Made by a program: the position numbers and the translations under genes. DNA of 64,000 nucleotides, from positions 1,131 to 65,130 of the forward strand of contig CAZOYV010000004.1 in the NCBI GenBank assembly GCA_964584075.1. The letters run 5' to 3'. The notes beneath the pieces are model-generated. The model saw only the letters and a program-made list of their open reading frames with translations. It was not told the DNA's origin and searched no databases. This stretch comes from an uncultured Rickettsiales bacterium. Lineage in GTDB: Bacteria > Myxococcota_A > UBA796 > UBA9615 > CAYRNR01. Below are positions 6,405 through 31,502 of the stretch, piece by piece. Position 1 is the first letter of the stretch. Each line of letters starts with the position of its first letter.

Positions 6405-6431
6405 CGTGGGGAGAGTCTAAAGCGAGGCTCG

Positions 6432-9325: not shown

Positions 9326-9984
9326 GCCACCTCCGCGCCCTCGCCCAGGAGGGTGATGTGGGGGAGCGTCTCTCCCCCGGGTTTCCAGTCCTCTGGCGGA
9401 GCCGCCTGGGAGTACACCGCGGCGAAACGGTGAGGGCCCGCCTCTGTGACATAGAATACCTGCAAGCGGCCATCCCGGCGTAGATCATTCGCGCCGGCGA
9501 CCCCGGGCAGCGTCGTCAGCGGCTCCCACGCCTCGCCCGGAGGCTCCACCAGGAAGGTCAGCATCCCCGCCCGATCGAGCTCGGCGCGCAGGTACACCGC
9601 GTCCCCGACGCGCAGGCGATCGTCGGCCTCGAGGCGCGCGGGCGCCTCGGCGTCGGGGTGCTGCACCAGGAAGTCGAGGTGCACCCCCGCGGGGGCCTCG
9701 TCCCCCGTGCCGCGGGGGGTCAGCCCCGCCGCGCTCTCCGCGGGCGGCTGCACGAACCACATCACGGCCACGGCGGCGGCCGCGGCCCCCAGCGCGGAGA
9801 CCGCCGCCACCAGCGCCGTGCGGCGCCACGACGGCCCGCGGCGTTCGGCGCGCAGGCGACCCTGGATGTCCTGGAGCACCGCGCGGTCCAGGTCTCGCGG
9901 CACCGGCTCCCGCGGGAGCAGCGCCGCCAGCGCCTCGACCGGGGGCTCGGGCCCCTCGATGATCACGTCGTCTCGCTGGCTCAT
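9283..9984 (-). CDS. membrane-spanning anti-sigma factor (cognate to upstream ECF sigma)
   Basis: ATGA overlap with the sigma factor stop. Cytoplasmic N-domain, a single TM (ALVAAVSALGAAAAAVAVMWFV) and a periplasmic domain. Position is immediately downstream of the ECF sigma gene. Confidence 0.6.
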   Translation of the reverse strand: MSQRDDVIIEGPEPPVEALAALLPREPVPRDLDRAVLQDIQGRLRAERRGPSWRRTALVAAVSALGAAAAAVAVMWFVQPPAESAAGLTPRGTGDEAPAGVHLDFLVQHPDAEAPARLEADDRLRVGDAVYLRAELDRAGMLTFLVEPPGEAWEPLTTLPGVAGANDLRRDGRLQVFYVTEAGPHRFAAVYSQAAPPEDWKPGGETLPHITLLGEGAEVAWVEVEATVKDASR

Positions 9985-10568
9985 CCCGTCATCTCCTCCG
10001 CAACCGGATCGGCCGAGAGGATCTCTCGGAGCTGTCGGCGCCCGCGGAAGATCGTCATCTTGGCGGCGGCTGCGGTGCAGTCCATCGTCTCGGAGACCTC
10101 CCGCGCGGTGTAGCCGTACAGATCGTGCAGCAACACCGCGGCCCGCCGACGCTCGGGGAGCTTCTCCAGCGCCGCGCGGAGCACCCGCTGCTTCTCTTCC
10201 CGGTAGGCCTCGTGCTCGGGCCCCGGCCGGTGCTCGGAGGGATCGGGCTGCCGGTCGTCGGGGCGCGAGCGGTTCTCGATGTCCCGCCACCCCTTGGACC
10301 GGCTGAGATCGACGCACAGCCGGTAGACGATGGTGTACAGGAACGTCGAGAACTTGGCCGTCGGTTGGTACCGGTGGCGGGACTTGTGCAGCCGCACGAA
10401 AGCCTCGTGGTACACCTCCTCCACCAGATCCTCCCGCGGGACGAAGCGGCGGATGAAGAAGTACACCCGCTCCTTGTGACGCACGTAGAGCTGCTCGAAG
10501 GCACGCTCGTCCCCCTCGCAGTACGCGAGCATGAGGTGTTCGTCCGTCACCATTCCCTCGTCGTCCAT
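9981..10568 (-). CDS. RNA polymerase ECF-type sigma-70 factor
   Basis: Region 2 (LMLAYCEGDERAFEQLYVRHKERVYFFIRRFV) and region 4 (LPERRRAAVLLHDLYGYTAREVSETMDCT...AKMTIFRGRRQLREIL). Start ambiguous between 10553, 10568 and 10601. Confidence 0.85.
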   Translation of the reverse strand: MDDEGMVTDEHLMLAYCEGDERAFEQLYVRHKERVYFFIRRFVPREDLVEEVYHEAFVRLHKSRHRYQPTAKFSTFLYTIVYRLCVDLSRSKGWRDIENRSRPDDRQPDPSEHRPGPEHEAYREEKQRVLRAALEKLPERRRAAVLLHDLYGYTAREVSETMDCTAAAAKMTIFRGRRQLREILSADPVAEEMTG

Positions 10569-10629
10569 CTCAACGATCCCGCGCCGAGAACGGTTCGCCA
10601 CCGTCTCGCCGTCACCAGTCCTTGACGGG

Positions 10630-10655
10630 ATCTTGACACTCGATCTTCGAAGCTG
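10630..10655 (-). promoter_or_regulatory. candidate ECF-type autoregulatory promoter (minus strand GGGAACC ... GTC)
   Basis: Minus strand reads GGGAACC, then about 18 nt, then GTCAAG, roughly 35-60 nt upstream of the sigma factor start. This resembles the ECF -35 GGAAC / -10 CGTC architecture, but the spacing is slightly long. Confidence 0.25.
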
Positions 10656-10892
10656 GTTCCCGAAAAGTGGCCCGGGGGCCCCCCGGGGGGCGGCGGTCGT
10701 TTGCTCCTTCGCGTGCGCCGCGCCCCCGGGAGGCGGGCCGACCCCGGGCGCCCGGCTCCCCCAACTGTTGCTGGCCGGGACGATCCCCGGGGTCGGGGTC
10801 CGGGCCGCCCCCCCATTCGGGCGGCGCCGGCCCGCGGAGGCGCTTCAAGCTCCGTGCCAGCGTCGCGATCCGCACGCCCACGGGCTCCCCGC

Positions 10893-10951
10893 GTCCGGAC
10901 CGTCCGGGCGGCGTCCGAAATCCGGACGGCGCCGACCGGAATTCGGACGCG
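10893..10951. promoter_or_regulatory. cluster of short GC-rich palindromes (GTCCGGAC; CGTCCG-aaatc-CGGACG; CCGAATTCGG) in divergent intergenic region
   Basis: Read directly from the sequence. Three related palindromic/inverted-repeat elements lie within 60 bp, about 130 bp upstream of the 11080 gene. Confidence 0.3.
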
Positions 10952-11079: not shown

Positions 11080-13167
11080 ATGGCGAGCGGGCTCGGTCGA
11101 TGGCTCAAGACTCTCGTCTCCCGGGGCAGCGGGACCGACCAGGAGCGCTACCTGGCCATCGACGACCTCGAGAACGGGTACTACAACTACCGCCTTATGC
11201 GCTTCCGCTCGGACGGCGATCTGGTCCGCTACCCCGACTACATCTGGAGCAGCGCGGGCTACTGGGCCGCCCGCGGGGGGCTGAGCGTGCACCTCGAGGA
11301 GCTGGCCGAGGCGCTCGAGGGCGCGATCTACTCGGACATCCTGGTCGTGCTCAACCGCGAGGACCGCAAGCGCTGCCTCGAGCGGCTGGTGATGCCCTGG
11401 GACGACCAGCTCGAGGCCCTCGTCGACAAGCAGGTCGAGCGCATGATCGCCGAGCGCGGCTGGCGGCTGGCGACCCCCGGGCGCCCGGTCCGGATGCGCG
11501 TGGTCGGCGACGGCGACGTGGCGATGGGCGGCGAGCCGGTGGGGCTCGAGGAGGGGGAGTTCGCCACGGCGCTGCTGCCGTCGCTGTACCACGGCCCGGT
11601 GGAGAGCTCGAGGCCGCTGGCCGAGGTGTTCGTGCGGGTGCCCAAGGAGGTGGGCGGCAAGGGCGGCTTCCGGTCGGTGGGGACGTTCTACGACGACCAG
11701 CTGGCGTTCACGATCGGGCGGCACTGGCTGGACAACGGGCGGGACCCGCTCCTGCCCGCCTCGGCGCTGTACACCCTGCACCGCTTCCCGGGGCAGACCG
11801 AGATCAACCACCGGCTCAACGCCGACCTGGCCGACCGCTACTCGATGGTCCGCACCAGCTCCAGCCAGGGCGACACGATCACGATCCAGGACACCGCGTC
11901 GTCGCGCCCGGTGCTCGAGGTGATGCTGATCCCCGACGGGGTCGAGCGCACCCGGTCCCCGCAGCGCGATCCGCGCCCCGCCGCGGGAGACCCGCTGGGG
12001 ACGCTGATCCCCGACGGGGAGCCGGCCTTCGGCGGGCTGACGATGATCCCCGAGCCCGAGCCGGTGCCGTCGCTGGTGCTCAGCCGCCGGGCGGTGCTGC
12101 TGCAGCGCGTGCACTTCTCCGGGGTGATGCGCGGGTACCACATGGACGTCACCGCCGACGGCACGATCGTGCCGCAGCACCCGGCCCCGGCGGCCCGCTT
12201 CCGGGTCGAGGACGGCGAGGTCCACTTCGAGCCGCTGCGCCGCGACATCACCCTCGACGGGGTGCCGACCCGCGCGGGCCGGCGCCAGCTGCTGGACAAG
12301 CTGGTCCACACGGTGTGCTTCGGCACCGTCACGCTGGAGTACCGCGCCGCGCCGCGGCGGGACGACCCGCGCTGGCCGTACCTGGCCGAGATCACGGTCC
12401 CCGCCGAGCCCACCGAGCTGGCGGTCGGGGGCACCTACCGGGTCGGGCGCGACCGCCGCAAGTGCGAGATCCCGCTGCCCGATCGCGCGGTGATCGAGAA
12501 CATCCTGTGGCACCCGTCGGTCAACCGGCAGGGGGCGATCCGGACCCGCACCGGCGAGGTCCCGGTGGAGTCGTTCACCACCGACTCGATCATGGTCGCC
12601 GGCCGCCACGCCGAGCTCGACCTGCGCGGCTCCGAGCCCAAGGTCCGGGCGCTGAGCAAGGTCTGCCCGGTGTTCGTCCGCCGCGCCGACAAGTCGGTGC
12701 TGCGCCTGATCGCCCGCGAGGGCAGCACCGCCCAGCCGCTGGCCGCCGGCGACGAGCTGCTGATCGGCAACGCGCTGTTCCGCGTGATCCTGCCCGGTGG
12801 CGCCCAGGGGCTGCTCCACACCACGACCAAGCTGCGGCCGCCCGCCGACCTGACGCCACCGCCGGAGGGCGCCCGCCACGACGACCCGTCGTTCCTCGAT
12901 CCCCCCGAGCCGGAGATCGCCGATCCCGACTCGCTGCACGACCTGACCGACCTGCCCTCGCTGCCCGGAGACGAGTCCGCGCACGAGCGGCAGGTGGTCG
13001 CCGCGGTGCAGGCCGGGGACGAACCCGCCAGCCCTCGCGACCCCGAGCGCGATCCACCGGGGTGGTACGGAGACCTGCCCAAGATGCTGCGCAGCCGCCT
13101 GGCGCTGCCCGAGCTGGGGGTCGACACCATCTCGCTGGACGAGTCGCTCACGGTGGCGGAGGGCTAG
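11080..13167 (+). CDS. hypothetical protein with degenerate C-terminal FHA-like domain
   Basis: GGAGGAGAGG RBS before ATG 11080. Natural composition over about 695 aa. FHA-like segment ...TYRVGRDRRKCEIPLPDRAV...GDELLIGNALFRVIL. First gene of a three-gene plus-strand operon. Confidence 0.6.
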   Translation: MASGLGRWLKTLVSRGSGTDQERYLAIDDLENGYYNYRLMRFRSDGDLVRYPDYIWSSAGYWAARGGLSVHLEELAEALEGAIYSDILVVLNREDRKRCLERLVMPWDDQLEALVDKQVERMIAERGWRLATPGRPVRMRVVGDGDVAMGGEPVGLEEGEFATALLPSLYHGPVESSRPLAEVFVRVPKEVGGKGGFRSVGTFYDDQLAFTIGRHWLDNGRDPLLPASALYTLHRFPGQTEINHRLNADLADRYSMVRTSSSQGDTITIQDTASSRPVLEVMLIPDGVERTRSPQRDPRPAAGDPLGTLIPDGEPAFGGLTMIPEPEPVPSLVLSRRAVLLQRVHFSGVMRGYHMDVTADGTIVPQHPAPAARFRVEDGEVHFEPLRRDITLDGVPTRAGRRQLLDKLVHTVCFGTVTLEYRAAPRRDDPRWPYLAEITVPAEPTELAVGGTYRVGRDRRKCEIPLPDRAVIENILWHPSVNRQGAIRTRTGEVPVESFTTDSIMVAGRHAELDLRGSEPKVRALSKVCPVFVRRADKSVLRLIAREGSTAQPLAAGDELLIGNALFRVILPGGAQGLLHTTTKLRPPADLTPPPEGARHDDPSFLDPPEPEIADPDSLHDLTDLPSLPGDESAHERQVVAAVQAGDEPASPRDPERDPPGWYGDLPKMLRSRLALPELGVDTISLDESLTVAEG

Positions 13168-13177
13168 GAGCCCGCCG

Positions 13178-15766
13178 GTGCCGGCGACGTTCCACCTCGC
13201 CTGGGCCGGCCTGCTGACGCTGCTGCTCGCGATGGCGCTCGGTGCGCCGGCGCGGACGTCCGCGCGCCCCGCGGCGCTGGCCCCCCAGCTCGCCGCCGGG
13301 GTCCTCGTGCTGGCCCTGCTCGCCGCGGCGCTGGGGCCGGCGGGGGGGGAGCGCGGCCCGGCGCTGGAGGCGTGGCGCGTGCGGGTCGGAGCGGGCGACG
13401 GCCCCGCCGTGCTGGGCACCGACGCCCGCTGCGACGTGGTGCTCGCCGACCCCCACGGCGACGCCGTCCACGCCGAGGTGACGTTCCCCGCCGGGGGACC
13501 GGCGATCCACAACCTGTCGGCCGCCCGCCGGGTCGAGCGCGACGGGATCGAGATCCACGACCCGGCGCTGCAGGTCGGGGACCGCCTGCTGCTGGGCGAC
13601 CGGGGCTGGACCGTCGCCCGGATCGGCGAGGCGTGGCCGGGGATCGTGCTGCGCGGCGACGACGGCGCCCGGCTGCGCCTGCGGCCCCCGCTGCGGCGGG
13701 CGCTGGCCGGGGCGTGGCCCGGGTCGGAGCTGGAGACCGCGGTGGCGTGGCTGGACGCCGACCGTGGCGAGTGGGAGACCCGCCGCCCCGAGGTCCCCAC
13801 CGGCCCGGTGGCCGAGCTGGCGCTCCGCGGGCGCTCCGCCCTGCTGCGCTACCCCACCGCCGGCGACCGCGCCGCCCACCCCCTGCGCGCCGAGCTGGGG
13901 GGGGCGCCCGCGCTGCGCCCCGCCGACCGGGCCGCCCCGCTCCACGAGGGCGACGAGCTGACGCTGGGCTACACGCGCTACCGCGTCGCGATCGGCCCCG
14001 ACGGCTCGCTGTCGCTGGAGGTCGTCGGGACGCCTCCGCGGCGGGCGTTCGACCCCGACGACGGCCTGCTCGCGATCGGCCCCGGGGGGGACCTGCCGTG
14101 GTCCACCGGTCGCCCCGTGCACCTCCAGGTGCGGCGCGGCGAGGAGCCCGGCGAGCTGTGGATGATCAGCACGGATCCCGGCTGGGTCCTGGGCCGCCGC
14201 CAGGGCTACCTGTGGCTCCACCCGCGCGGGGGCTCCACCCGCCCGGCCGAGCCGCAGCTGCTGCGTCGCGGGTCGGGGCTGATCGTCAGCGGCCCCCGCC
14301 ACGAGGCCGTCTACCGCTACCGCGCGGCGCCGACCGTCGCGGCCCTGCTCGCCGGCGAGGAGCCGGGGACCCCGGAGGCGCGGTTCTGGCGCGCCGCTGC
14401 CCTCGCGGCGGCCCTGTACCTCGTCCTGATCGTCCTGCTCCACCGCGCGGGGGTCCTGCACCTGCGCAACGCCGCCATGCTGCACGGGGCCGTGCTGCTG
14501 TTCGGCCTCGGCCTGGCGGTGTTGCTCGAGCTGTCCCCGCCGGGCGACCCGCGCCGCGCGGAGCTGGCGGCGCGCCAGGCGTGGTTCGGGGTCCTGGGGC
14601 TCGGCGCCGGGGCGGCCGCCGCGGCGGCGTGGTGGGCGGGCACCCGCTGGCGCGGCCGCGCGGCCCTCCCCGGGCGCTGGCTGCGGTTCCTCGAGGCGCC
14701 GCTGGGGGGGCGCCGCTGGGGCCACCTGCGGCCGCTGTCGCTGTCGCGCGTCAGCCTGCTGTGGGGGCTGGCGGCGGCGGTCCTGGCCCTGCAGCTGCCG
14801 TTCGGCGAGCGCGGCCTGCCGGTCCCGCTGCTGGGCTCGGCCCAGCCGGTGGAGGCGGCCAAGGCGCTGCTGATGGTCTACGCCGCGTTCCTCGCGGTGC
14901 GGGCGCTGGAGGACAAGCGGGCGCGGCGGGCAGGTCCCGAGGGGCTGGTGCGGCGCTGGTCGTACATGCTGCACGCCATCCCGATCGTCGCCATCGCGGC
15001 GCTGTGCTACGGCCTCGAGGACTTCTCCCCGGTGCTGATCGTGGGGCTGTTCCTGTGGACGATGTACCTGCTGTCGCTGCGGACCCCGGCGCGGTCGTTC
15101 TGGCCCCCGCGCCGGTGGCTGCAGAACGTCTACGTCGAGCAGGCGGTCCTGGTCGGGCTGGCCGTGGGTGCGGTGACGCTGGCGGCCTCGCTGGGGCACG
15201 GCACGGTCGCCGATCGCTTCGCCGCGTGGTCCGACCCGTGGCACCGCACCACCACGTCGGGGCAGTTCGTCGCGTCGCTGTGGATGGTGATCGACGGGGG
15301 CGTCCTGGGCCGCGGCTTCGGGAGCCCGCTCCCGCCGCTGCCTCCGGCGGCCCACGACGACTTCGTGCTCTCGGTGCTGGCCAACCGCACCGGGCTGGTC
15401 GGCCTGCTGCTCGTCGCCGCGACGCTGGGCGCGATGGTGGCCGGGGGGTTCGCCGCGATCCGGGCGATCGGCCCCGCGACCCGCCCCGACCTGGCCGGGC
15501 TGGGCTGGCTCGAGCGGGCGCGGATGCTGGGCGTCTCGGCGCTGGTGATGCTCTCGATCCAGAGCGCCGTGGTGTTCGCCTCGGTGACCGGCTGGGCGCC
15601 CGTGATGGGCCAGCCGATGCCGTTCGTCGCCGCCGGCGGCTCGCACCTGCTGCTGCTGGGCGTGCCCGTCGTGGCGCTGCTGCTGGCCTCGACCCGGTAC
15701 CAACCGGCGGCGCGGCGCGTCGCGGCGCCGAGATCGGAGGTGGAGCGTGGCGAGCGGGCGGCCTGA
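13178..15766 (+). CDS. SEDS-family (RodA/FtsW-like) peptidoglycan polymerase with long N-terminal extension containing FHA-like modules
   Basis: C-terminal half carries SEDS signature blocks: QPVEAAKALLMVYAAFL (cf. QPSEFAK), HDDFVLSVLANRTG (cf. DFIFSVI), MPFVAAGGSHLLLLG (cf. LPFVSYGGSS). The N-terminal half has FHA-like LGTDARCDVVLADPHGDAVHAEVTF...GDRLLLG. GTG start at 13178. Confidence 0.75.
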   Translation: MPATFHLAWAGLLTLLLAMALGAPARTSARPAALAPQLAAGVLVLALLAAALGPAGGERGPALEAWRVRVGAGDGPAVLGTDARCDVVLADPHGDAVHAEVTFPAGGPAIHNLSAARRVERDGIEIHDPALQVGDRLLLGDRGWTVARIGEAWPGIVLRGDDGARLRLRPPLRRALAGAWPGSELETAVAWLDADRGEWETRRPEVPTGPVAELALRGRSALLRYPTAGDRAAHPLRAELGGAPALRPADRAAPLHEGDELTLGYTRYRVAIGPDGSLSLEVVGTPPRRAFDPDDGLLAIGPGGDLPWSTGRPVHLQVRRGEEPGELWMISTDPGWVLGRRQGYLWLHPRGGSTRPAEPQLLRRGSGLIVSGPRHEAVYRYRAAPTVAALLAGEEPGTPEARFWRAAALAAALYLVLIVLLHRAGVLHLRNAAMLHGAVLLFGLGLAVLLELSPPGDPRRAELAARQAWFGVLGLGAGAAAAAAWWAGTRWRGRAALPGRWLRFLEAPLGGRRWGHLRPLSLSRVSLLWGLAAAVLALQLPFGERGLPVPLLGSAQPVEAAKALLMVYAAFLAVRALEDKRARRAGPEGLVRRWSYMLHAIPIVAIAALCYGLEDFSPVLIVGLFLWTMYLLSLRTPARSFWPPRRWLQNVYVEQAVLVGLAVGAVTLAASLGHGTVADRFAAWSDPWHRTTTSGQFVASLWMVIDGGVLGRGFGSPLPPLPPAAHDDFVLSVLANRTGLVGLLLVAATLGAMVAGGFAAIRAIGPATRPDLAGLGWLERARMLGVSALVMLSIQSAVVFASVTGWAPVMGQPMPFVAAGGSHLLLLGVPVVALLLASTRYQPAARRVAAPRSEVERGERAA

Positions 15767-18700
15767 GCCGCGGGCGCGGTGGCTGGCGCGAGCCCAGCGG
15801 ATGCTGGTGCTGGCTGGCGTGGTCGCCGTGGCCGCGCTGGGGCTCCGGCTCGGACAGGTGCGGCGGGCCGCCAGCGAGCAGGCCCGGATGGCGCTGGTGG
15901 CCGTCCCCGTCGACGACCTCGGCGGGGGGTTCGTCGTCCGGCCCACCCGCCGCGGGTACCGCCTGCGCCACGGGGAGGGCGGCGCCACGGCGCTGCGCGA
16001 CGGCGACCGGTTCACCGTCGCCGGGACCGAGGTGACGTTCCACGGTCCCGATCGGGGGCGCCCGGGGGACGATCAGGTGTGGTCGGTGGTGCTGTCGACC
16101 CCGCTGCGCGTGCTCGCCGCGCGCGAGACCGACCGGGGGCCCCGCGGCGGGTACCGCCGGATCGACATCGGCGGCGACCCGGCCGGGGCGGCCAGCGGCA
16201 CCCGCGACCGGATCTTCGTCGACCCCGAGGCCGTGGCGGACGCGCTGGACGGTCCGGCGCGGGAGGCGTTCGAGCGGACCCGCGGGGTCGCCCACCTGCT
16301 GCCCGCCGAGGGCGAGGTGTTCCGCCTCGAGCAGCGCTCGTTCCGGGTGGTCGCCGAGATCGAGGGGCTGGAACGGGTCCGCGGCGGCGAGCGGGAGGCG
16401 CTGGCGGTCGGCGCCGCGACCGAGCTGTGGTCCGGCGACCGCGTCGTGGGCCCGGGCCTCGATCTGCGCTTCGACGTCGAGGAGCGCCTCCGCTCCGCCC
16501 CGGTGCGCGACCGCGCCGGCGCGGTCGTGGCCCAGCGCGCGATCGCCGAGCCGGCGCTGGTGGTCCGTGCCCCGGCGCCGGCACCCCGCGACGCCCGGCC
16601 CCGGGCCTACCTGTCCGGCGCGGACCGCGACGGCGAGCCGTTCGTCCTCGCGCTCGCTCCGGATCGCCCGACGCTGCTGTACGGCGCCCGCGACCGGCTG
16701 CGCCCGCTCGACGGCCACGTGATCCCCCGCACCTGGACCGACGAGGCGCGGATCGAGGCGTTCGACGCCGCGGTGGCGGCCCGCGCGATCACGCTGCGGC
16801 GCGGGTTCCTCCACGTCGCCGGCCCCGACGACCCCGCCGCCGCCCACCTCGCGGCCCTCGACCCGACCGTGGTGCGGGCGCTGCGCGACGAGGTCGAGCG
16901 CTACAACCGCGGGCAGGTCCCCGCGACGGTGCAGGTGAGCGGGACCCTGGGCGACGACGCCCTGGACCGCCCCGCCGGCTGGACGATGCGGATCGACGGA
17001 GAGCCCCGCACGCTCGCGGGCCTCTCGCCCGGGGAGCGCGGCCTGCAGCTCCCGCCGCCGGGCGACCTGGACCCCGCCGCGCTGCCGGCCGGGGCGCGGC
17101 GCGAGTGGACGCTGCACCGCGCCGTGGTCGCCGCCGAGCCCGGGGTGGCCCGCGTCGAGGTCGCGTCCGGGCTCCCCGTCGCGGTCACGCTCGACGGCGA
17201 GCTGCTGGGCCACGTCCGGGGCGAGCCCCTGGCGGTCGAGCGCCCGCTGGAGGCCGGCGCCCACGAGCTGATCCTGACGGTCCGGTACCAGGGCCGCCCG
17301 GACGACCACGGGACCGCGGCAGGGGTCCGCGCCGAGCTCGACGGCGCCCGCCTCGTCGACGCCCACGCCGGCCGCACGCGCTTCGCCGGCTGGACCGAGC
17401 GCGCCGACGGGGGCCGGCTGTGGGGTCCCGCGGAGGCCGACGCCAGCGGCGCGCTGTGGCTCGCCGGGGGTGCCCCGCTGGGCCGCGACGACGAGGCCTA
17501 CCTGCAGCTGCGCTTCGACGCCCCCCGCGCGGGCCCCTCGATCCTGCGGCTGGAGACCGCCGGCGAGCTCGCCGATGCCCACCTCAACGGCGCGGCGCTC
17601 CCGGCCGACGCGCTGCCCTTCCTGCCGGGGGAGTCGGCGGCGCTCGCGGTCCCGCTCCGCCGCGGCAGCAACCTGCTGGCGCTACGCGTGCGCCAGCCGA
17701 CCGCGCTGCCCGACGAACCCCGCGGAGGCGTGCGGCTCCGGGCCGTGGACGGCACCCTCGTGGGCCTCGCCCCCGACGCGGGCCACCGCTCGATGGCCGA
17801 CCCCGACCGCGAGGACGGCGGGCCCGCGCTGGTCACCCGGCGCCCGGCGGGCGAGGGCGTCCGCCTGGTCGTGGCCCGGGGGATCCCCGGCCTCCCGGAG
17901 GGCACCGAGTGGTGGGTCGGGCCCGCCGCGGGCGTCCCCGCGGCGCTGCTGCTGGCCCCCGCGGAGGCGCCCGTCGGCGGGGAGGTCCTGGCGCTGGAGG
18001 AGGGGCTGACGGTCCGCTGCGACAGCGCCGGCGACGCCCCGTTCACCGTGGTCAACCGCAGCCCGCACGACGCGGCCCTGTTCCGCCAGCTGGACCCGAT
18101 GCGGCGGCCCTACCAGCCGTTCGGCGGGTTCCTCGTCCGGGCCGGGTGGCGCCAGCCGCTGCGACACGACCGTGACGCGGTGCGGGGCTCGTCCGCCCAG
18201 GCGACCTACCGGGTCGGCGCGCCCACCGCGGTGGCCGCCGCCGTCACGCTGGCCCGCGCGGACGGCCTCCACTGCCTGCGCGTGGACGGGGATTCCCGCC
18301 TGCTGGTCCCCCCCGATCTGGACGCCGCGGACCACCTGCAGCTCGGGCTGCGGGACGGCGCGCCGGTCCTCGAGGCAGCCGCGCCGGGGACCACGGTCTT
18401 CCGCGACGGCGTGGTGCGGCACGAGGTCGGCGGCGCGGGGGACCTCCCGCTGGGGCTGGCCTCCGGCGACGCCCTGTCGCTCCCCGGCACCGGCCTGCTG
18501 CTGGTGGTGGACGACGAGCTCGACGTGGTGACCGCCGGCGCTCCGCTCGAGGCGAGCCTCGGGCCGGTGGCCGGGGCGGCCCGCCGGCTGACCGCCGCCC
18601 ACCGGGCCCGGCGGGACGGTGACCGGGTCGAGCTGACCGTCGAGCCGCTGCTCCAGCTGGCCGCCGAGGACGAGCTCGAGGCCCAGCTCGAGCGGGCCGA

Positions 18701-19934
18701 GCGCACGCTGGACGACGCCGGCCAGACGCTGGCGCCCGGCCCCGAGGGGCTGCAGGGCGCCGTGGTCGCGCTCGACGTGGCCGACGGCGCCGTGCTCGCC
18801 GCCGCCTCGGTGGGGGGGGACGACCGGGCCGCCGGCGCCTGGCGGCTGGCGTTCACCCACCCGGGCTCGACGTTCAAGATCGTGACGATCCTGACGGCGC
18901 TGGGCTCCGCCGACCCCGACGTGGTCGCGATGCTCGACGGCGACCTCCCCGAGGGGCTCCGCGCCGCTCGCCCCGGCACGCTGCAGGGTGCCGAGCTGGC
19001 CCGGCTGACCCCGAGCGGAGGGCGCTGGTCCGGCGACGACGACGAGCCGATCGCGGTGCGCAGCCCGCTGCGCAACTTCCGCGGCCAGCCGCTCCCCGTC
19101 GGCGCCGATCTGCGCAGGGCGACGGTGCTGTCCTCCAACACCTACTTCGGATACCTCGTGCTGATGCTGCACCGCCCGCTGCGCGAGGGCTGGTCGGGCA
19201 CCGCGATCGCCGATCCCGCGGTGCGGGACGAGCTGATGCCGCTGCTCGCCACCGCCGAGGCGCTGGGCTTCGGCGAGGTCGTCGATCTGGTCCCCGAGGG
19301 GCTGTCCGCCGACGCATCGAGGACCCCCCCGGTGGTGGACCGCGACGGCCGCCCGGTGGCCCCCGGGGACGCGCTCCACGGCTGGACCGGGCGCCTCCCC
19401 GACGGCCCGCTGGACGACGTGGCGATGGCCGCCGCGGGCGTCGGGCAGGGCGAGGTCTACGCCACGCCGCTGCAGGTCGCCAGGGTCGCCGCGACGGTGG
19501 CGCGGGGCGGCGTCCCCGCGGACCCGTACGCGGTGTCCGCGGTCGGCGCCCGCACGCGGCGCGCCCCGCGGCCGCGCGACCCGGTCGTGACGCCCGCGAT
19601 CGCCGCCGAGACCCGCGAGCTGCTGAGCGCCGTCGTGCAGGAGGGCACCGCCGCGGTGGCCTTCGAGGACAACCCGTACCGCGATCGCTGCTGGGGCAAG
19701 ACCGGCTCGGCGGAGCGCCCCGGTCCCGACGGCGGGCACGTCACCGACTCGTGGTTCGTCGTCGTGATCGAGCCGGACGAGGCCGACCTCGGCTCCGAGG
19801 ACCGGCGCCACCACCCCGTGGCGGTCGCCTGCGTGATGCCCGGCGCCGGCCTGGGCGGGACCCACGCCGCGGAGGTCGTCGATCGCTGGGTGCGGGTGCT
19901 GGCCCGGACGCGCGGCTGGACCGCGGACGAGTAG
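15747..19934 (+). CDS. giant (1395 aa) membrane protein with C-terminal class-B penicillin-binding-protein transpeptidase domain
   Basis: SxxK (GSTFK), SxN (LSSNTY) and KTG (GKTGSAE) motifs in the last ~400 aa. N-terminal TM then FHA-like end motif (RDGDRFTVAGTEVTF). About 900 aa of unassigned sequence. GTG start with GGAGG 7 nt upstream. Overlaps the previous gene by 20 nt. Confidence 0.75.
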   Translation: MASGRPEPRARWLARAQRMLVLAGVVAVAALGLRLGQVRRAASEQARMALVAVPVDDLGGGFVVRPTRRGYRLRHGEGGATALRDGDRFTVAGTEVTFHGPDRGRPGDDQVWSVVLSTPLRVLAARETDRGPRGGYRRIDIGGDPAGAASGTRDRIFVDPEAVADALDGPAREAFERTRGVAHLLPAEGEVFRLEQRSFRVVAEIEGLERVRGGEREALAVGAATELWSGDRVVGPGLDLRFDVEERLRSAPVRDRAGAVVAQRAIAEPALVVRAPAPAPRDARPRAYLSGADRDGEPFVLALAPDRPTLLYGARDRLRPLDGHVIPRTWTDEARIEAFDAAVAARAITLRRGFLHVAGPDDPAAAHLAALDPTVVRALRDEVERYNRGQVPATVQVSGTLGDDALDRPAGWTMRIDGEPRTLAGLSPGERGLQLPPPGDLDPAALPAGARREWTLHRAVVAAEPGVARVEVASGLPVAVTLDGELLGHVRGEPLAVERPLEAGAHELILTVRYQGRPDDHGTAAGVRAELDGARLVDAHAGRTRFAGWTERADGGRLWGPAEADASGALWLAGGAPLGRDDEAYLQLRFDAPRAGPSILRLETAGELADAHLNGAALPADALPFLPGESAALAVPLRRGSNLLALRVRQPTALPDEPRGGVRLRAVDGTLVGLAPDAGHRSMADPDREDGGPALVTRRPAGEGVRLVVARGIPGLPEGTEWWVGPAAGVPAALLLAPAEAPVGGEVLALEEGLTVRCDSAGDAPFTVVNRSPHDAALFRQLDPMRRPYQPFGGFLVRAGWRQPLRHDRDAVRGSSAQATYRVGAPTAVAAAVTLARADGLHCLRVDGDSRLLVPPDLDAADHLQLGLRDGAPVLEAAAPGTTVFRDGVVRHEVGGAGDLPLGLASGDALSLPGTGLLLVVDDELDVVTAGAPLEASLGPVAGAARRLTAAHRARRDGDRVELTVEPLLQLAAEDELEAQLERAERTLDDAGQTLAPGPEGLQGAVVALDVADGAVLAAASVGGDDRAAGAWRLAFTHPGSTFKIVTILTALGSADPDVVAMLDGDLPEGLRAARPGTLQGAELARLTPSGGRWSGDDDEPIAVRSPLRNFRGQPLPVGADLRRATVLSSNTYFGYLVLMLHRPLREGWSGTAIADPAVRDELMPLLATAEALGFGEVVDLVPEGLSADASRTPPVVDRDGRPVAPGDALHGWTGRLPDGPLDDVAMAAAGVGQGEVYATPLQVARVAATVARGGVPADPYAVSAVGARTRRAPRPRDPVVTPAIAAETRELLSAVVQEGTAAVAFEDNPYRDRCWGKTGSAERPGPDGGHVTDSWFVVVIEPDEADLGSEDRRHHPVAVACVMPGAGLGGTHAAEVVDRWVRVLARTRGWTADE

Positions 19935-19937
19935 CGC

Positions 19938-22325
19938 TCAGCGCCGCTTGCCGCCCCCGCGGCGGGGCGGGGGCGGGAGCTCCTCGAGGACCTCGCCCTC
20001 GGGGATCGGCGTGGCCGCCTCCCGGTCCTCCCCGGCGGCCGGCTCGTCCCGGTCGGCGGCGACCTCGCCGGGGTCGATGCCGTCCGCGGGCTCCTCGGTC
20101 TGCTTGAACTTGCCCCGCGGGGTGTCGGCCTCGACCGGTACCCTGAGCGGCGTCGCGACCGGCGCCGGCGTCGGTGGCGGGGGCTCCTCCTCGGTGACCG
20201 TGTCGCCGAGGGAGGGGATCTTCTCCTCGACGAAGCGCGGCAGCTCCGGACGATCCTGGAACGAGCGGAACGGCGTGATCTCGTACTCGGGCTCCCACAT
20301 CCGCGGCGCACCGGGGCGCCGCGAGAGCAGCCCGCTGCGGGCGCCGGCCCGGTCCCGCGCCTCGCGGCTGCCGACCCGGCCGCGGTGGTCCTCGAAGCCG
20401 TGGTCGATCACCACGCCGGGGCTGGGCGTCGGGGCCTCGGCCAGTGGCCCGGCCCCTCCCTCGGGGGGCGGCCCCGCGCCCCCGTCGTCCGCGGTCGCGA
20501 CCGGCGTGCCGCGGTCCGGCGGCGCGCCGTCGGCCGCGGCCGGCGTACCACCCCCGTCACCCCCGCGGGTCCCGGCGGACCCGTCTGGCTCGACGGCGTC
20601 CTCCGCCACACCATCCGGTCCGGCGGCACCGTCCGGACCGTCGCCGCCGTCCGGCCCGTCGCCCCCGAGCAGCCCGCCGATCCCGTCCGTCAGCGCCACC
20701 CGCGGCCCGGGGGAGGCCAGCACCAGCGCCGCTCCGCCGGCGACCAGGAGCAGCGCCGCGGCCCACAGCCCGGCGCTGCTGCGCCGCCGGGGGAACGGCT
20801 CGTCGTCGCGCTCGGCGAGGGGCACGATCACCGGCTCGCGGGAGGGCGTCGCGCCCGCGTCCACCGGGGCCGCGGTCGTCGGGGCCGCCTCCGGGGTCGA
20901 CGCGAGCGGCTCCGGAGCGGCCGCCGGCGCGGTGCCCGCGGCGCCGCCGAGGACCTCCACCGCGGCGATGCTCATCATCTCCTCGGGCACCGCCGTCGGG
21001 TTGGCGACGCCCTCGTCCTCGCCGCGCGGCCACGGCACCTCCGGCGCGCCCCGGTCCGGGGGGGCGATCGGAGCCGCGTCCGGCAGCGCCTGCGCGGCCG
21101 CGGGGTCGTGGGGCGTCGGATCGACGATCGACCGCGGGTCCGCCATCTCCAGCGTGTCCGGGGCCGGTGGCTCCTCGCCGGTGGGATCGCTGAGCCGCAG
21201 CGGTGCCGGGCGCTCGTCGTCCGGCGGCAGCAGCAGCTCGTCCTTCTTGCCGGGCCGCTCGAACGCCGCTGCCGGCGCCAGCGCGGGCAGCGGCGGCAGG
21301 GGCTGGCCCTTCTTGGGCGCCGAGTCCCCGGCCTCGATCAGCTCCTCGCAGTACGCGGCCACGGTCTCCGCGTCGGGGCGCGCCTCGGGCGAGCGCGTGA
21401 TCAGCTGATCGACCAGCTCGTCCAGCAGCGGCAGGTGGGGCTCGTACCCCTCCCCGGCGCTGAGCGGGACCCGCTCGTAGCGCGTCGCGCCCGAGCGCAG
21501 CGCCTGGAAGTCGACCGCGCCGCGCGCCACCAGATCGCGCACCGGCTGGCCGCCGGCGAGGGTGTGCATCAGCACGCCGAGCCCGAAGATGTCGGTGGGC
21601 GGGCCGACCGTCGCCTCGCCGCGGAGCTGCTCCGGGGAGGCGAACTCGGGCGTCCCGACGAACCCGCCCTGGATCGTGACGTGGCGGCGGGGGATGAACT
21701 CGGGCTGGGCGCGCGCGATGCCCCAGTCGGCGACCCGGATCCGGATCGGGAACTCCTCGGGGTTGCGCACCAGGATGTTGGACGGCTTCAGATCGCGGTG
21801 GGTCACGCCGATGGCGTGCGCCGCGGCCAGCGCGCGGGCGATCTGGGTTCCGACCTGCAGCACCGTGCGCGACGCCAGCCGCCCGTGCTTGCGCAGCAGC
21901 TCGTCGAGCCCCCCGCCCGGGACGAACTCCGTGGCCAGGAAGTAGGGCTCCTCGCCGTCGACCTTGAGCTCGCGGAACGGCACGACGTTGGGGTGCTCGA
22001 GGCGGCGCAGCACCTCGCCCTCGAGCCGCAGCCGGTCCTGGAGCATCCCCTGGCCGCGGTCGAGGTGCAGGATCTTGATCGCCACGTCGCGGTGCTCGGG
22101 ATCGTCGGCGGCCAGATCGATGGCGCGGTAGGTGACCCCGGCCCCGCCGGCGCCCAGCCGCTGGCGGATGCGGAAGCGCCCGTCGATGTTCTCGCCGGCC
22201 TCGTAGAAGAACGGCCAGCCGCTGGTGGGCCGGGACTTGCCGCACGACAGCCGCGGACAGAGATCCGCGTCCGACTCGATGTAGCGCAGGCAGTAGCTGC
22301 AGTAGTGCTGTCGCGGTCCGGGCAC
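19938..22325 (-). CDS. Ser/Thr protein kinase with N-terminal zinc-ribbon, Pro-rich linker, one TM and acidic C-terminal region
   Basis: Hanks kinase motifs GAGGAGVTYRA, VAIK, HRDLKPSNIL, DWG, SPE. CxxC...CxxC at the N-terminus. GTG start with GGAGG 12 nt upstream. Convergent with the PBP-like gene (3-nt gap). Confidence 0.85.
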   Translation of the reverse strand: MPGPRQHYCSYCLRYIESDADLCPRLSCGKSRPTSGWPFFYEAGENIDGRFRIRQRLGAGGAGVTYRAIDLAADDPEHRDVAIKILHLDRGQGMLQDRLRLEGEVLRRLEHPNVVPFRELKVDGEEPYFLATEFVPGGGLDELLRKHGRLASRTVLQVGTQIARALAAAHAIGVTHRDLKPSNILVRNPEEFPIRIRVADWGIARAQPEFIPRRHVTIQGGFVGTPEFASPEQLRGEATVGPPTDIFGLGVLMHTLAGGQPVRDLVARGAVDFQALRSGATRYERVPLSAGEGYEPHLPLLDELVDQLITRSPEARPDAETVAAYCEELIEAGDSAPKKGQPLPPLPALAPAAAFERPGKKDELLLPPDDERPAPLRLSDPTGEEPPAPDTLEMADPRSIVDPTPHDPAAAQALPDAAPIAPPDRGAPEVPWPRGEDEGVANPTAVPEEMMSIAAVEVLGGAAGTAPAAAPEPLASTPEAAPTTAAPVDAGATPSREPVIVPLAERDDEPFPRRRSSAGLWAAALLLVAGGAALVLASPGPRVALTDGIGGLLGGDGPDGGDGPDGAAGPDGVAEDAVEPDGSAGTRGGDGGGTPAAADGAPPDRGTPVATADDGGAGPPPEGGAGPLAEAPTPSPGVVIDHGFEDHRGRVGSREARDRAGARSGLLSRRPGAPRMWEPEYEITPFRSFQDRPELPRFVEEKIPSLGDTVTEEEPPPPTPAPVATPLRVPVEADTPRGKFKQTEEPADGIDPGEVAADRDEPAAGEDREAATPIPEGEVLEELPPPPRRGGGKRR

Positions 22326-22453
22326 CGGTCCGGCCTCCGCAGAGCGACACCGCCCCCCGTGGGCGGGCCCACCCCGCTGACCTGCAAGACGCCCCGGGGC
22401 GTCGAACTATTCGATCAGACCAGATTCCGGAGCAGAAGGGGAGTTCGGGTGGA

Positions 22454-22633: not shown

Positions 22634-22814
22634 GGTCCCAGGTCTCCAGCTCCGGCGGCGTCGGCGGTACCGGTCGCGCCTCTGCCGCGGGGCCGACGGA
22701 TGGTAGGAGCGCGCGCCACGACTGTCAAGGCTCGCGGTGGTCGCGGTGGATGCGGCGCTTGGCGGGGCGGGGCCATCATTGGTATTTTCAGGGAGATCAC
22801 GTCAGGGAGCGACC

Positions 22815-23936
22815 GTGGCGAAGAAGCCCCGAACCGGAGGGGGGGGGGATTCGAGCAACGCTCCGGGCAAGCCCTCGTCCCGCCGTGCCCCCGAGGCGAA
22901 GGCGCGGAGACAGGCGCCTGCGCCCCCGCCGATCCGCGATCTCGATCAGCTCGAGATCGAGGAGGCCCACGCCAGCGGGGAGCACCTCACCGACCTCGTG
23001 CTCGACCCCGACGACGAGCTGACCCAGTGGCAGAACGACCCCAGGCTGGCCCCGGTGCACAAGGTCGAGGAGCCCGACGACTCGCTGTCCGACAACGGCG
23101 AGGACTCCCTCGAGCTCGAGGACGGCGGCGCGATCGACATCGCGGGCGACGCGTTCCCGGCCGCGCCCGAGCGGCCCGAGTGGTCCGAGGAGCACGACGC
23201 CCCCCCCGGACCGCCCGCCGGCGGGATGCCCCAGCTGCCGCTGGTCAATCCGTTCACCTCGAGCACGGCCCGCGATCAGGCGCAGGGCTCCTCCGGCGAC
23301 ACCCTCTCGTCCGACGACGACGATCCGGACGGGCGCCCGGCGTCGTCGCTGGTCACCACCGACGACGATCTCGACCTCGACGGCGAGGACGAGCTCGCCC
23401 TGCCCCGCGCCGAGCTCGACCCGGACGACCGGGCGACGCCGATGGACCTGGTCCACGTCTCGATCGACCCGGACGCCGCGGACGGGGTCTCCCTCGACGA
23501 GGAGATGGAGACCGACGTCCTGGAGCTGACCCCGATGGGGGGCAGCTTCGACGAGCTCGAGCGCCTCGAGGCCGAGGTCGAGCGGCTGGAGGAGGAGGAC
23601 CGCCTCGACGAGGCGCTGTCCGCGCTGCGCCGGCTCCAGAACCTGCTGCCCGACGACGGCGATCTGGCCTACCGCTACGAGGACCTCCAGGATCGCGTGA
23701 TCCAGTCCTACTTCCCGGGCAAGGACCGCAACTCGGTGGTCATCCTGGCCGTGACCCCGGCCGAGCTGCCGGAGCTGGTCAAGGACGCCGAGGCCGAGCT
23801 CGGGGCGATCCTCGGCCGGATGGACGGGGCCACGTCACTCGGGGAGATCGACGCCGCCCTCGGCGACCTGGAGCCGGGCACGCTCTACCGGCTGCTGTCG
23901 CGGGCCAAGGGCAAGGGCCTGATCCGCCTCGAGTAG
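22815..23936 (+). CDS. acidic hypothetical protein (Asp/Glu-rich middle, ordered C-terminal domain)
   Basis: GTG 22815 preceded by AGGGAG. The last ~120 aa look globular (SVVILAVTPAELPELVKDAEAELGAILGRMDG...LYRLLSRAKGKGLIRLE). Confidence 0.5.
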   Translation: MAKKPRTGGGGDSSNAPGKPSSRRAPEAKARRQAPAPPPIRDLDQLEIEEAHASGEHLTDLVLDPDDELTQWQNDPRLAPVHKVEEPDDSLSDNGEDSLELEDGGAIDIAGDAFPAAPERPEWSEEHDAPPGPPAGGMPQLPLVNPFTSSTARDQAQGSSGDTLSSDDDDPDGRPASSLVTTDDDLDLDGEDELALPRAELDPDDRATPMDLVHVSIDPDAADGVSLDEEMETDVLELTPMGGSFDELERLEAEVERLEEEDRLDEALSALRRLQNLLPDDGDLAYRYEDLQDRVIQSYFPGKDRNSVVILAVTPAELPELVKDAEAELGAILGRMDGATSLGEIDAALGDLEPGTLYRLLSRAKGKGLIRLE

Positions 23937-25616: not shown

Positions 25617-25763
25617 CGAAGGGAGCCGTTCCGGGGGGAGCCAGGCGCCGGCCCCGTACCGATAGTCATCCCTCGCCCGCTGGCAACCCCGACGCCCGTT
25701 GGCGGTTGACACCCCGGGGCGCCTCGGGTATCGATCCCCCGCTTCGCAGCCCGGTTCTTTCTC

Positions 25764-26264
25764 ATGACGAACCGCGACGACCAGCGCTGGATGCTCGAGG
25801 CCCTCGCCGAGGCGCGGGCGGCCGGGGCCGACGGCGAGGTCCCGGTGGGCGCCGTGCTCGTGGCCGACGGCCGCGTGGTGTCCCGGGGCCGCAACCGCCG
25901 CGAGCGCACGGGGGATCCGACGGCGCACGCCGAGATGGAGGCCCTGCGCGGGGCGGTGGACCCGGCCTCGCCGGGGCGCTGGCGCCAGCTGGGGGCGACG
26001 ATGTACGTCACCCTCGAGCCGTGCGCGATGTGCATGGGCGCGCTGATCCTGGCGCGCGTGGAGCGGCTGGTCTACGGCTGCCCGGACCCCAAGGGGGGCG
26101 CCGCCGAGACGCTGTACCGGCTCGGCGACGACGAGCGCCTGAACCACCGCGTCGCGGTCACGGGAGGAGTCCTGGCGGAGGAGTCGGCGGACCTGCTACG
26201 CTCCTTCTTCAAGCGACTCCGGGCGCGCCGCGGCGGCGGCGGACCCGGGGCCCAGGGCAGCTGA
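25764..26264 (+). CDS. tadA: tRNA-specific adenosine deaminase
   Basis: CDA zinc motifs HAEMEAL and TLEPCAMC. Size and layout typical of TadA. Confidence 0.9.
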   Translation: MTNRDDQRWMLEALAEARAAGADGEVPVGAVLVADGRVVSRGRNRRERTGDPTAHAEMEALRGAVDPASPGRWRQLGATMYVTLEPCAMCMGALILARVERLVYGCPDPKGGAAETLYRLGDDERLNHRVAVTGGVLAEESADLLRSFFKRLRARRGGGGPGAQGS

Positions 26265-31202: not shown

Positions 31203-31502
31203 CGAACCCCCTCTCGGCGGACCTCCCCGGAGCGCCATGGTTGGCGCGATGATACCATCCGCAGATCCCGCTGTGACGGGCGTTTCCAAGGGCTCCCGGT
31301 CACGTTGACACTGGCAAAAACAGCATGGTAGCGTGACTCGATTCCGGCGTGTTCGCTGGACACCGAAAGGGGACTCTGACTCCTCGTTTCCCAGGTCCCC
31401 ACGGATGGGGGTTCGCCCGGGGAACTGGATAGAGCGGGATCCAGAGACCAGACCCACTTCAACCCAACTCCGCCCGACTCGATATTGCGAAGGAGAGTTG
31501 CC

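Follow-up and report, generated by a model that had tools for sequence, protein, structure and literature searches.

A rare, kinase-associated locus for an FHA-like/SEDS fusion protein, a giant class-B PBP and an FHA-fold protein in a high-GC, Myxococcota-like bacterium

The window analysed here is a stretch of 64,000 nt of contig CAZOYV010000004.1 (assembly GCA_964584075.1), deposited under the name of an uncultured Rickettsiales bacterium. It carries a locus of four genes: g1 encodes a soluble protein with an FHA fold, g2 a SEDS glycosyltransferase fused to FHA-like domains, g3 a giant class-B penicillin-binding protein (PBP) and g4 a Hanks-type Ser/Thr kinase. With moderate confidence we propose that g1, g2 and g3 constitute a dedicated, probably accessory peptidoglycan synthase, in which g2 would provide an FHA-like platform, g1 would act as adaptor and g4 would be the partner kinase. 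The proposal builds on the gene order, the catalytic motifs, the FHA fold in the model of g1, the fusion of g2 and g3 in relatives and the linkage of the kinase.

A SEDS-PBP pair encoded together with an FHA-fold protein

The window has a G+C content of ~75% and consequently contains long spurious open reading frames (ORFs) across all frames. Codon-position composition, which singles out one frame per locus among the window ORFs, was of the coding type for the four ORFs of the module, with a G+C content of 0.95-0.97 at third (GC3) and 0.49-0.60 at second codon positions (GC2); the kinase-frame ORF scored for this purpose extends over 19938-22406 on the minus strand. The genes were called as follows:

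11080-13167, plus strand: g1, 695 aa; GC3 0.97, Shine-Dalgarno sequence GGAGGAG ahead of the ATG at 11080
13178-15766, plus strand: g2, 862 aa; supported by Pfam, by an identical 862-aa call of NCBI (P0001) and by the family alignment
15747-19934, plus strand: g3, 1395 aa; class-B PBP, PF00905
19938-22325, minus strand: g4, 795 aa; Pkinase match at E 4e-36

The three plus-strand genes are tightly packed, exactly at the coordinates claimed by a first-pass annotation of this DNA. The stop codon of g1 (TAG, 13165-13167) is separated by a 10-nt gap from the GTG start codon of g2 at 13178, and g3 starts with GTG at 15747, resulting in a 20-nt overlap with the end of g2 (TGA, 15764-15766). Motifs of the GGAGG Shine-Dalgarno type precede all three starts, and g1, g2 and g3 form a translationally coupled operon. 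NCBI calls a shorter g3 product of 1377 aa (P0039) from an ATG at 15801, with which the overlap with g2 would vanish. We prefer the start at 15747 because of the Shine-Dalgarno sequence at 15736-15745 and because the fusion proteins of relatives conserve residues 1-18 and are read through there. Only 3 nt lie between the stop codon of g3 (TAG, 19932-19934) and the reverse-strand stop codon of g4 (19938-19940); g4 is intact and, as claimed before, convergent to the triad.

The product of g2 combines a transmembrane (TM) hairpin, a cytoplasmic module of beta domains and a SEDS glycosyltransferase:

13184-13348, plus strand: TM hairpin, aa 3-57; helices at aa 3-21 and 31-57 in the AlphaFold2 (AF2) model, hydropathy peaks at aa 7-25 and 34-52
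13361-13627, plus strand: FHA-like domain 1, aa 62-150; degenerate
13643-14047, plus strand: beta domain 2, aa 156-290; C-terminal half FHA-like, predicted local distance difference test (pLDDT) score of 86-93 in the AF2 model
14063-14323, plus strand: beta domain 3, aa 296-382; strands in the AF2 model, diverged in the distant clade
14372-15697, plus strand: SEDS domain, aa ~399-840; PF01098

The SEDS identity of g2, already recognised in the first pass, is well founded. PF01098 matched aa 554-831 with 80.6 bits against a cut-off of 26.4 (E 1.5e-22), and hydropathy analysis yielded ~10 hydrophobic segments, some of them merged, between aa 403 and 835. The catalytic Asp728 (15359-15361) is retained in the motif LPPAAHDDF, in which HDDF aligns on HTDF of the Pseudomonas aeruginosa FtsW motif LPEAHTDF. 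D727, D728 and the C-terminal block PVMGQP.PFVAA.GSH / PF..AAGGSH are invariant in the family, the SEDS C-terminal motif of g2 being PVMGQPMPFVAAGGSH. Among the NCBIfam equivalogs ftsW was the top match, with 80.5 bits against a cut-off of 337.5; the values were 43.6 against 336.7 for rodA (TIGR02614 and TIGR02210 for ftsW and rodA) and 45.7 against 448.8 for spoVE. With equivalog scores that reach at most about a quarter of the cut-offs, g2 and g3 are, by sequence, not the ordinary rodA-mrdA or ftsW-ftsI pair, the identity that the earlier annotation had named as its alternative. Judged by these motifs g2 is a divergent SEDS polymerase with the catalytic Asp kept, for which polymerase activity is predicted.

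The AF2 model of aa 1-420 of g2 (pLDDT 80.5) comprises the TM hairpin, three beta domains and the first SEDS helix, which begins at aa 399. The first TM helix of SEDS proteins starts in the cytoplasm. Since the beta module is preceded by the TM hairpin and followed by this helix, its location is most probably cytoplasmic. For aa 77-146 the Pfam FHA profile remained below threshold (15.8 bits against 20.7, E 0.019) and Yop-YscD_cpl reached 19.3 bits against 33.2 (E 1.4e-3); PF16697 is on record for the g2 relatives P0002, P0042, P0044 and P0045. Foldseek retrieved the FHA domains of Ki67, GarA, Rv1747, YscD and EscD with probabilities of 0.77-0.99, these being weak matches (E at least 0.017, TM-score ~0.47). 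Within beta domain 2, aa 206-272 aligned by hhalign with the C-terminal half of the g1 FHA profile (probability 71%, E 3.9e-5), and beta domain 3 is replaced in the alignment in P0003 and P0004. FHA domains scoring above the Pfam threshold occupy the homologous position in the distant SEDS proteins P0055, P0068, P0061 and P0058 (30.5, 25.0, 21.9 and 21.2 bits, respectively). These data support one or two degenerate FHA-like domains in g2, homologous to the Pfam-positive FHA domains of related SEDS proteins. The fusion of FHA to SEDS claimed initially is therefore upheld for degenerate FHA-like domains, although the profile match is below threshold and most of the residues that bind phosphothreonine (pThr) are lost.

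The third gene encodes a PBP of unusual length:

15801-15860, plus strand: TM anchor, aa 19-38; TM helix predicted at aa 20-38
15861-18611, plus strand: periplasmic region of ~920 aa after the sole TM helix
18612-19931, plus strand: pedestal remnant and transpeptidase domain, aa ~956-1395; Ser1041 at 18867-18869

As had been noticed from the motifs, g3 ends in a class-B transpeptidase domain. Transpeptidase PF00905 matched with 63.9 bits against a cut-off of 22.1 (E 1.9e-17) at the C-terminus only, and the motifs STFK (S1041/K1044), SSN (S1129/N1131) and KTG (K1318-T-G) are invariant in the g3 family. Pfam detected neither a GT51/Transgly domain nor PBP_dimer (PF03717) in g3. Residues ~956-1025 aligned weakly (i-Evalue 0.5) to residues 206-272 of Thermus thermophilus PBP2, and among solved structures T. 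thermophilus PBP2, as part of the RodA-PBP2 complex (6pl5), and Mycobacterium tuberculosis PBPA (3un7) are nearest to g3. By these motifs g3 is a class-B PBP with predicted cross-linking activity. The ~920-aa extension lies beyond the only TM helix and is thus assigned to the periplasm. This N-terminal region is conserved across the g3 family, and carbohydrate-binding or Ig-like domains would be expected in it from motifs such as LRRGSNLLALRV. The long PBPs of Aminicenantes and of the distant locus L030 showed no detectable homology to this arm.

An FHA module had also been ascribed to the PBP, which could not be substantiated. Pfam found no FHA match in 300-aa slices of g3 or in four orthologues, a 13-sequence profile searched against the PDB gave neither an FHA domain nor any PDB family for the N-terminal region, and hhalign against the g1 FHA profile aligned only the terminal hairpin (probability 15%, 39 columns).

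The first gene encodes a protein without TM segment, which we classify as a soluble cytoplasmic adaptor of a new family:

11143-11940, plus strand: N-terminal alpha/beta domain, aa 22-287
11941-12063, plus strand: disordered linker, aa 288-328; pLDDT <50
12067-12369, plus strand: middle domain, aa 330-430; all-beta, block-mean pLDDT 80-94
12379-12798, plus strand: FHA-fold domain, aa 434-573; insertion of ~35 aa
12799-13164, plus strand: disordered C-terminal tail, aa 574-695; pLDDT <50

No Pfam or NCBIfam family matched g1 at E ≤ 0.1. It has 33 homologues, one of which is named 'FHA domain-containing protein' by NCBI; the family alignment was built from 26 homologues with lengths of 660-1088 aa. 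In the AF2 model (mean pLDDT 73) aa 434-573 adopt the beta-sandwich fold of FHA domains, and the g1 profile matched FHA chains of the PDB weakly, at E 0.025-0.8. Within this domain the pair Gly456-Arg457 is invariant and the canonical His is retained in only part of the family. Two conserved cysteines were observed here, Cys529 (12664-12666), which is invariant and occupies the position of the canonical Asn, and Cys462 (12463-12465), which is at least 90% conserved; the pair may serve in metal binding, in redox chemistry or structurally. The N-terminal domain carries the invariant polar residues D47, D144, D206-Q207, H215, D218-N219 and H244, and the tail contains two conserved short motifs, YG.LPR.LR.R and LP.L.....SL[DE]E.LTV. 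The middle domain matched neither the PDB nor FHA profiles; an apparent hhalign match suggesting a second FHA domain was traced to the RWPYL residues shared by two overlapping crops and was discarded. According to the model g1 represents a new family with an FHA fold, for which we propose an adaptor role. FHA-like segments had been expected in each of the three genes; in sum, the expectation holds for the modelled fold of g1, applies to g2 in a degenerate and sub-threshold form, and fails for g3.

The disordered linker of g1 contains a twin motif of the form [ST]-hydrophobic-hydrophobic-P-[DE], TLIPD at aa 308 (12001-12015) and TMIPE at aa 321 (12040-12054). Both copies are present in 21 of the 26 family members and at least one copy in 24, with a spacing of 13-15 aa, and the motif does not occur anywhere else in these proteins. 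From this conservation the two copies are candidate phospho-acceptor or docking sites.

Conservation, gene fusion and kinase linkage

Apart from the window, 16 distinct loci contain the triad, with g2 identities of 37-75%; of these loci, 14 belong to metagenome-assembled genomes (MAGs) that represent species. Among the GTDB species representatives, 14 MAGs carry full-length g2 homologues at 37-55% identity. Analyses by tblastn and blastp revealed the order g1-g2-g3 in every fetched locus of sufficient length; g1 lies directly upstream of g2 throughout, its stop codon often abutting the start of g2.

In one subclade g2 and g3 are merged into one continuous ORF of 2091-2240 codons:

L009, 9965-16255: g2-g3 fusion ORF
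L010, 9986-16708: g2-g3 fusion ORF
L011, 9956-16273: g2-g3 fusion ORF

The metagenome proteins P0042, P0044 and P0045 are likewise g2-g3 fusions. At the junction the SEDS C-terminus runs straight into the TM anchor of the PBP, which is topologically consistent. By the Rosetta-stone argument the fusion indicates that both proteins act as one machine, and the sequences thus strongly suggest that g2 and g3 work as one complex.

The family is rare. A word-indexed search returned five matches for g2 and seven for g3, and the wider class became visible only by exhaustive HMMER searches. In the latter, which covered 1.84 billion cluster representatives, the g2 family was made up of 18 proteins at E ≤ 1e-30, followed by a second tier of N-terminally extended SEDS proteins of ~800-925 aa with g2 scores of at most 222 bits, compared to at least 390 bits within the family. 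In this second tier P0055 (locus L030) is followed by a PBP of 1376 aa, and no PBP gene is adjacent to that of P0061. Three loci of Aminicenantes (L024-L026, e.g. L026:8232-17047) encode, all in one direction, a g1 homologue of 522 aa, an N-terminally extended SEDS protein of 794 aa, a PBP of 1021 aa and a kinase of 603 aa fused to an FGE-sulfatase-type domain. The g1 homologue aligned with g1 by hhalign over 403 columns (probability 91%), including the motifs GRD..C and GD.LIGN.LF, and the SEDS protein is 25-32% identical to g2. This argues that the four-part module is older than the high-GC clade or was transferred beyond it.

The fourth gene encodes a membrane-bound Hanks kinase:

22239-22301, minus strand: N-terminal Cys4 Zn-ribbon-like motif
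21363-22172, minus strand: kinase domain
20718-20774, minus strand: single TM helix, aa 518-536
19941-20717, minus strand: extracytoplasmic tail, low-complexity, rich in Pro, Gly and Asp

The match to Pkinase PF00069 reached 125.2 bits against a cut-off of 31.7 (E 4e-36), and the catalytic motifs VAIK(IL), HRDLKPSN and DWG are present in the translation. No PASTA domain was detected by Pfam. The top NCBIfam match, PknB_PASTA_kin (NF033483), scored 147 against a cut-off of 450 and covered only the kinase domain (model positions 2-206).

Linkage of the kinase to the triad was scored over 17 distinct loci including the window, of which 14 were readable on both flanks and three on one side. Of the 14 loci readable on both sides, 13 have an orthologue of g4 within 3 kb of the triad, so that the association is kept in relatives, in three gene orders. 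In the window, L006, L008 and L014 the kinase gene is convergent and directly abuts the triad; in L009-L011 it is likewise convergent, with a gene for a UvrD-like helicase in between; in L003, L012, L015, L017, L018 and L021 it lies upstream on the same strand, immediately so except in L003. The 13 kinases scored 229-914 bits to g4 in tblastn and, where both were scored, 73-130 bits to the other kinase of the window; for the orthologues the two scores were put at 229-259 and 101-130 bits. Twelve of the 13 kinases, all but that of L011, were aligned at the N-terminus, and all twelve share the Zn-ribbon-like motif YCSxCL...C...C..RP..GWP, by which the L008 kinase was assigned. On these comparisons g4 belongs to a specific group of kinase orthologues that is a conserved partner of the module. 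The other Hanks kinase of the window (54812-58684, plus strand, 1290 aa) also comprises an AAA_16/STAND-type ATPase and tetratricopeptide repeats, and the genome as a whole is rich in kinases.

Ten of the related loci (L008-L011, L014, L015, L017, L018, L020 and L021) are titled 'uncultured Rickettsiales', yet their gene content is Myxococcota-like and their G+C content 66-75%, and the MAGs of other relatives are titled 'Myxococcota bacterium' or 'Proteobacteria bacterium'. With a G+C content of 66-76% across the relatives, the Rickettsiales label is implausible.

Several neighbours of the module recur in relatives. Divergent from g1, a block on the minus strand (5490-10844) encodes a MerR regulator, a caspase-family Peptidase_C14 protein (7601-9484) and an extracytoplasmic function (ECF) sigma factor. 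It is syntenic in L009-L011, the sigma factor gene is found at the contig end of L006, and the distant clade lacks the block. The divergent intergenic region between the sigma factor gene and g1 contains a near-perfect palindrome of 40 bp (10911-10950) with 20-nt arms, 90% complementarity, no spacer and GTCCGGA-like half-sites. At the equivalent place of L010 (7755-7795) a perfect palindrome with 19-nt arms was found, with GTCCGGAAAT, and none was detected at the same settings in L006 and L009. Judged by its position and symmetry, the palindrome may be an operator.

On the other side, a 409-aa protein without family (22707-23936, plus strand) recurs in the close clade (L006, L008), and a 750-aa protein with three lamin-tail domains (23943-26195, minus strand) is found again close to the module in the two clades alike (L003, L006, L008, L012, L015, L017 and L018). 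The true start of the latter probably lies further downstream, since its 5' end overlaps a deaminase gene (25710-26264). Both proteins may belong to the same functional neighbourhood. Genes of the dcw or mreBCD type were not found nearby in the window. Two further genes are unlinked to the module, one for a coiled-coil protein with weak similarity to the crescentin rod (31380-32048, plus strand) and one for an IstB/IS21-like AAA ATPase (35973-36833, plus strand).

Proposed mechanism and alternative readings

In the reading that we favour, the SEDS domain of g2 would polymerise lipid II and the transpeptidase of g3 would cross-link the glycan strands. Unlike RodA and FtsW, g2 would carry a cytoplasmic platform of ~320 aa, which the TM hairpin would tether to the membrane and in which two of the three beta-sandwich domains are FHA-like. 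The kinase g4 would phosphorylate threonines in the cytoplasmic parts of this machine, the best candidates being the twin T-x-x-P-[DE] motifs in the linker of g1, and phosphorylation would alter the association of g1 with the platform, thereby switching the activity or the placement of the synthase. Canonical FHA domains such as those of Rad53 and GarA bind pThr via a Gly-Arg pair, a Ser-x-x-His motif and an Asn; that the FHA folds of g1 and g2 read pThr is a hypothesis. A complex of g1 and g2, the targets of phosphorylation, the direction of the regulation and an accessory rather than housekeeping status are what we infer.

A number of observations speak against such a switch. In the alignment of g2 domain 1 with GarA, Gly-Arg is changed to Gly-Thr, the Ser is absent (D/A; His98 is kept) and Asn is replaced by Arg. 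This degeneracy extends across the wider class of FHA-SEDS proteins, with P0061 as the one exception that has Gly-Arg. In the FHA domain of g1, Ala507 (conserved to at least 90%) takes the position of the canonical Ser and the invariant Cys529 that of the Asn. Since the pThr-binding residues are lost in g2 and only partly kept in g1, a pThr-FHA switch may not exist. The linker motif, too, varies, its second copy carrying Ser in place of Thr in the distant clade, and FHA domains normally discriminate against phosphoserine. Moreover, neither PP2C nor SpoIIE phosphatases were detected by Pfam in any substantial ORF of the window, gap ORFs as well as those supported by GC3, or in the related loci inspected. 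The first-pass annotation, which had seen no phosphatase gene in the window, was thus confirmed on this point by the scan of the 64-kb ORFs; the sole candidate, a 1002-aa HD-domain protein (39235-42243, plus strand), is not a PP2C enzyme and is unlinked to the module. With regard to the kinase, L020 has no kinase nearby although both flanks are visible, and these lineages encode many kinases. Taken together, the mechanism that the annotation had called phospho-signalling-coupled was not borne out: g2 lacks the Arg, Ser and Asn, g1 has Ala and Cys in place of Ser and Asn, and a phosphatase was not found. The Thr-containing twin motif in the disordered linker of g1 is the point in its favour.

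The main rival explanation builds on these losses. On this view the FHA-like domains would be scaffolds that work without phosphorylation, like those of YscD and EssC, and g1 and the g2 platform would assemble constitutively; g4 would then phosphorylate the machine directly without read-out by FHA domains, or act on another target and be linked to the triad by co-regulation only. The same substitutions throughout the FHA-SEDS class and in g1, the higher score of Yop-YscD_cpl compared to FHA on g2 domain 1, the presence of YscD and EssC among the fold matches and the missing phosphatase all agree with it. It is harder to reconcile with the invariant Gly-Arg pair of g1, with the conserved threonines of the twin motif in a disordered linker and with a kinase orthologue that stayed beside the module across three rearrangements, an adjacent kinase being found in the Aminicenantes loci as well. 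We regard constitutive scaffolding as a serious possibility, but a less probable one than the regulated synthase.

That g2 and g3 are instead a strongly diverged and decorated housekeeping pair, RodA-PBP2 or FtsW-FtsI, with the kinase as an incidental neighbour, appears unlikely. All catalytic residues are intact and ftsW is the top NCBIfam model, and both the kinase-rich lineage and L020 would fit an incidental kinase; nevertheless, the ftsW equivalog score is far below its cut-off, dcw and mreBCD genes are missing from the context, and 18 representatives in 1.84 billion are an extreme rarity for a housekeeping enzyme. The pair is instead surrounded by genes for an ECF sigma factor, a caspase and a lamin-tail protein, and the kinase belongs to a specific orthologue group. 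The caspase gene has a further bearing, as the kinase could be part of an anti-phage or stress system of the PD-T4-6/MADS type together with the caspase and the ECF sigma factor, the cell-wall genes being unrelated to it. The kinase domain of g4 indeed matches PD-T4-6 and mad6 of PADLOC at E ~1e-49 as well as MADS6 and PglW of NCBIfam, and the caspase gene is close by. However, these matches span only the generic kinase domain and remain far under the equivalog cut-offs (127.9 against 460), PADLOC matches are confined to generic kinase and caspase domains and include none of g1, g2 and g3, and the caspase and sigma factor occur only in the close clade, whereas the kinase accompanies the triad in both clades. 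We consider a defence function very improbable.

A broader version of the regulated-synthase proposal can be put forward only tentatively. Here the module would be a cross-phylum system of four genes, shared by Myxococcota-like bacteria and Aminicenantes, in which a pseudo-FHA platform would be read by g1 and gated by the Zn-ribbon kinase via the twin motifs, serving as synthase of a specialised structure. As part of the same tentative reading, the ~920-aa periplasmic arm of the PBP could be a new targeting or measuring device. If this were true, the module would be a self-contained, signal-switched cell-wall synthase outside ordinary growth, which one subclade has condensed into a single chain of more than 2000 aa.

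Comparison with known systems

The module bears on how the activity and the placement of SEDS-class-B PBP synthases are controlled from the cytoplasm. Known activators of these synthases are periplasmic or act through divisome or elongasome partners, and in the mycobacterial operon, the best-known example of phospho-regulation, the FHA proteins are separate. In the module, the polymerase itself contains the putative regulatory domains on the cytoplasmic side as part of its chain, and the proposed adaptor and the kinase are encoded alongside. Together with the natural single-chain SEDS-PBP fusions, the module would offer a compact system to test the control of peptidoglycan synthesis from the cytoplasm to the periplasm in a didermic lineage. 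The degenerate FHA-like domains fused to SEDS also caution that the label 'FHA' is not equivalent to 'phosphothreonine reader'.

Compared with the canonical pairs RodA-PBP2 (6pl5, Escherichia coli MrdB 8tj3) and FtsW-FtsI (P. aeruginosa 25hr/8p1u), the module has the SEDS motifs, the catalytic Asp and adjacent genes in common, and g3 shares the TM anchor and the SxxK, SxN and KTG motifs with canonical class-B PBPs. However, g2 matches solved SEDS chains with only 24-27 bits and has an N-terminal extension of ~400 aa, and the canonical pairs lack a giant PBP without recognisable PBP_dimer, an in-frame SEDS-PBP fusion as present in the relatives, and a dedicated kinase and adaptor. Closer in architecture is an unnamed class of extended SEDS proteins (P0055, P0058, P0061, P0068 and those of L024-L027), which likewise consist of a TM segment, an FHA or Yop-YscD_cpl domain and SEDS, have the same degenerate FHA-like residues as g2 and in some cases are followed by a very long PBP. 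Some Aminicenantes loci of this class also have a g1 homologue and a kinase, but the kinase is of a different type, the FGE-sulfatase fusion. FHA-SEDS fusions and the module were not described in the full-text literature searched, a search that was not exhaustive, the architectures being visible in domain databases; articles on FHA together with SEDS, FtsW or RodA dealt with the actinobacterial system only.

Membrane-tethered cytoplasmic FHA-like domains without the canonical pThr-binding residues are also known from YscD/EscD of type III and EssC of type VII secretion systems, and this group is represented among the fold matches (4a0e, 4d9v, 5fwh and 9qks). Those domains sit in secretion machines, whereas the g2 domain is fused to a peptidoglycan polymerase. 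The kinase g4 resembles the PASTA kinases PknB, Stk1 and PrkC as a membrane-bound Hanks kinase linked to peptidoglycan synthesis genes, but differs from them in lacking PASTA repeats, in its low-complexity outer tail and in the N-terminal Zn-ribbon-like motif.

The functionally nearest known system, by analogy, is the actinobacterial operon fhaA-fhaB-pstP-rodA-pbpA-pknA-pknB of Mycobacteriales (bioRxiv 10.1101/2024.08.13.607006; PMC3989709), of which the module is not a member. In both, a SEDS gene adjoins a class-B PBP gene in the company of FHA-fold proteins and a Hanks kinase, and the g3 transpeptidase has M. tuberculosis PBPA among its nearest relatives of solved structure. Like FhaA, g1 is a multidomain protein with a folded domain at the N-terminus, an FHA domain towards the C-terminus and a long disordered linker; outside the FHA fold, homology between the two is not detectable. 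The module differs in having no PP2C phosphatase of the PstP type, one kinase rather than two and no PASTA repeats. In place of a separate FhaB, its SEDS protein includes FHA-like domains and a TM hairpin. The phospho-binding residues of its FHA domains are degenerate, the PBP has an extra periplasmic region of ~920 aa, and the host belongs to a high-GC Myxococcota-like and not an actinobacterial lineage. The earlier statement that the locus mirrors the actinobacterial one is therefore apt as an analogy, but it does not extend to PstP, PASTA repeats, a second kinase or FhaB. On this analogy we suggest that the module represents a rare, kinase-associated and probably accessory SEDS-class-B PBP synthase, a Gram-negative counterpart to the operon for cell-wall signalling in mycobacteria.

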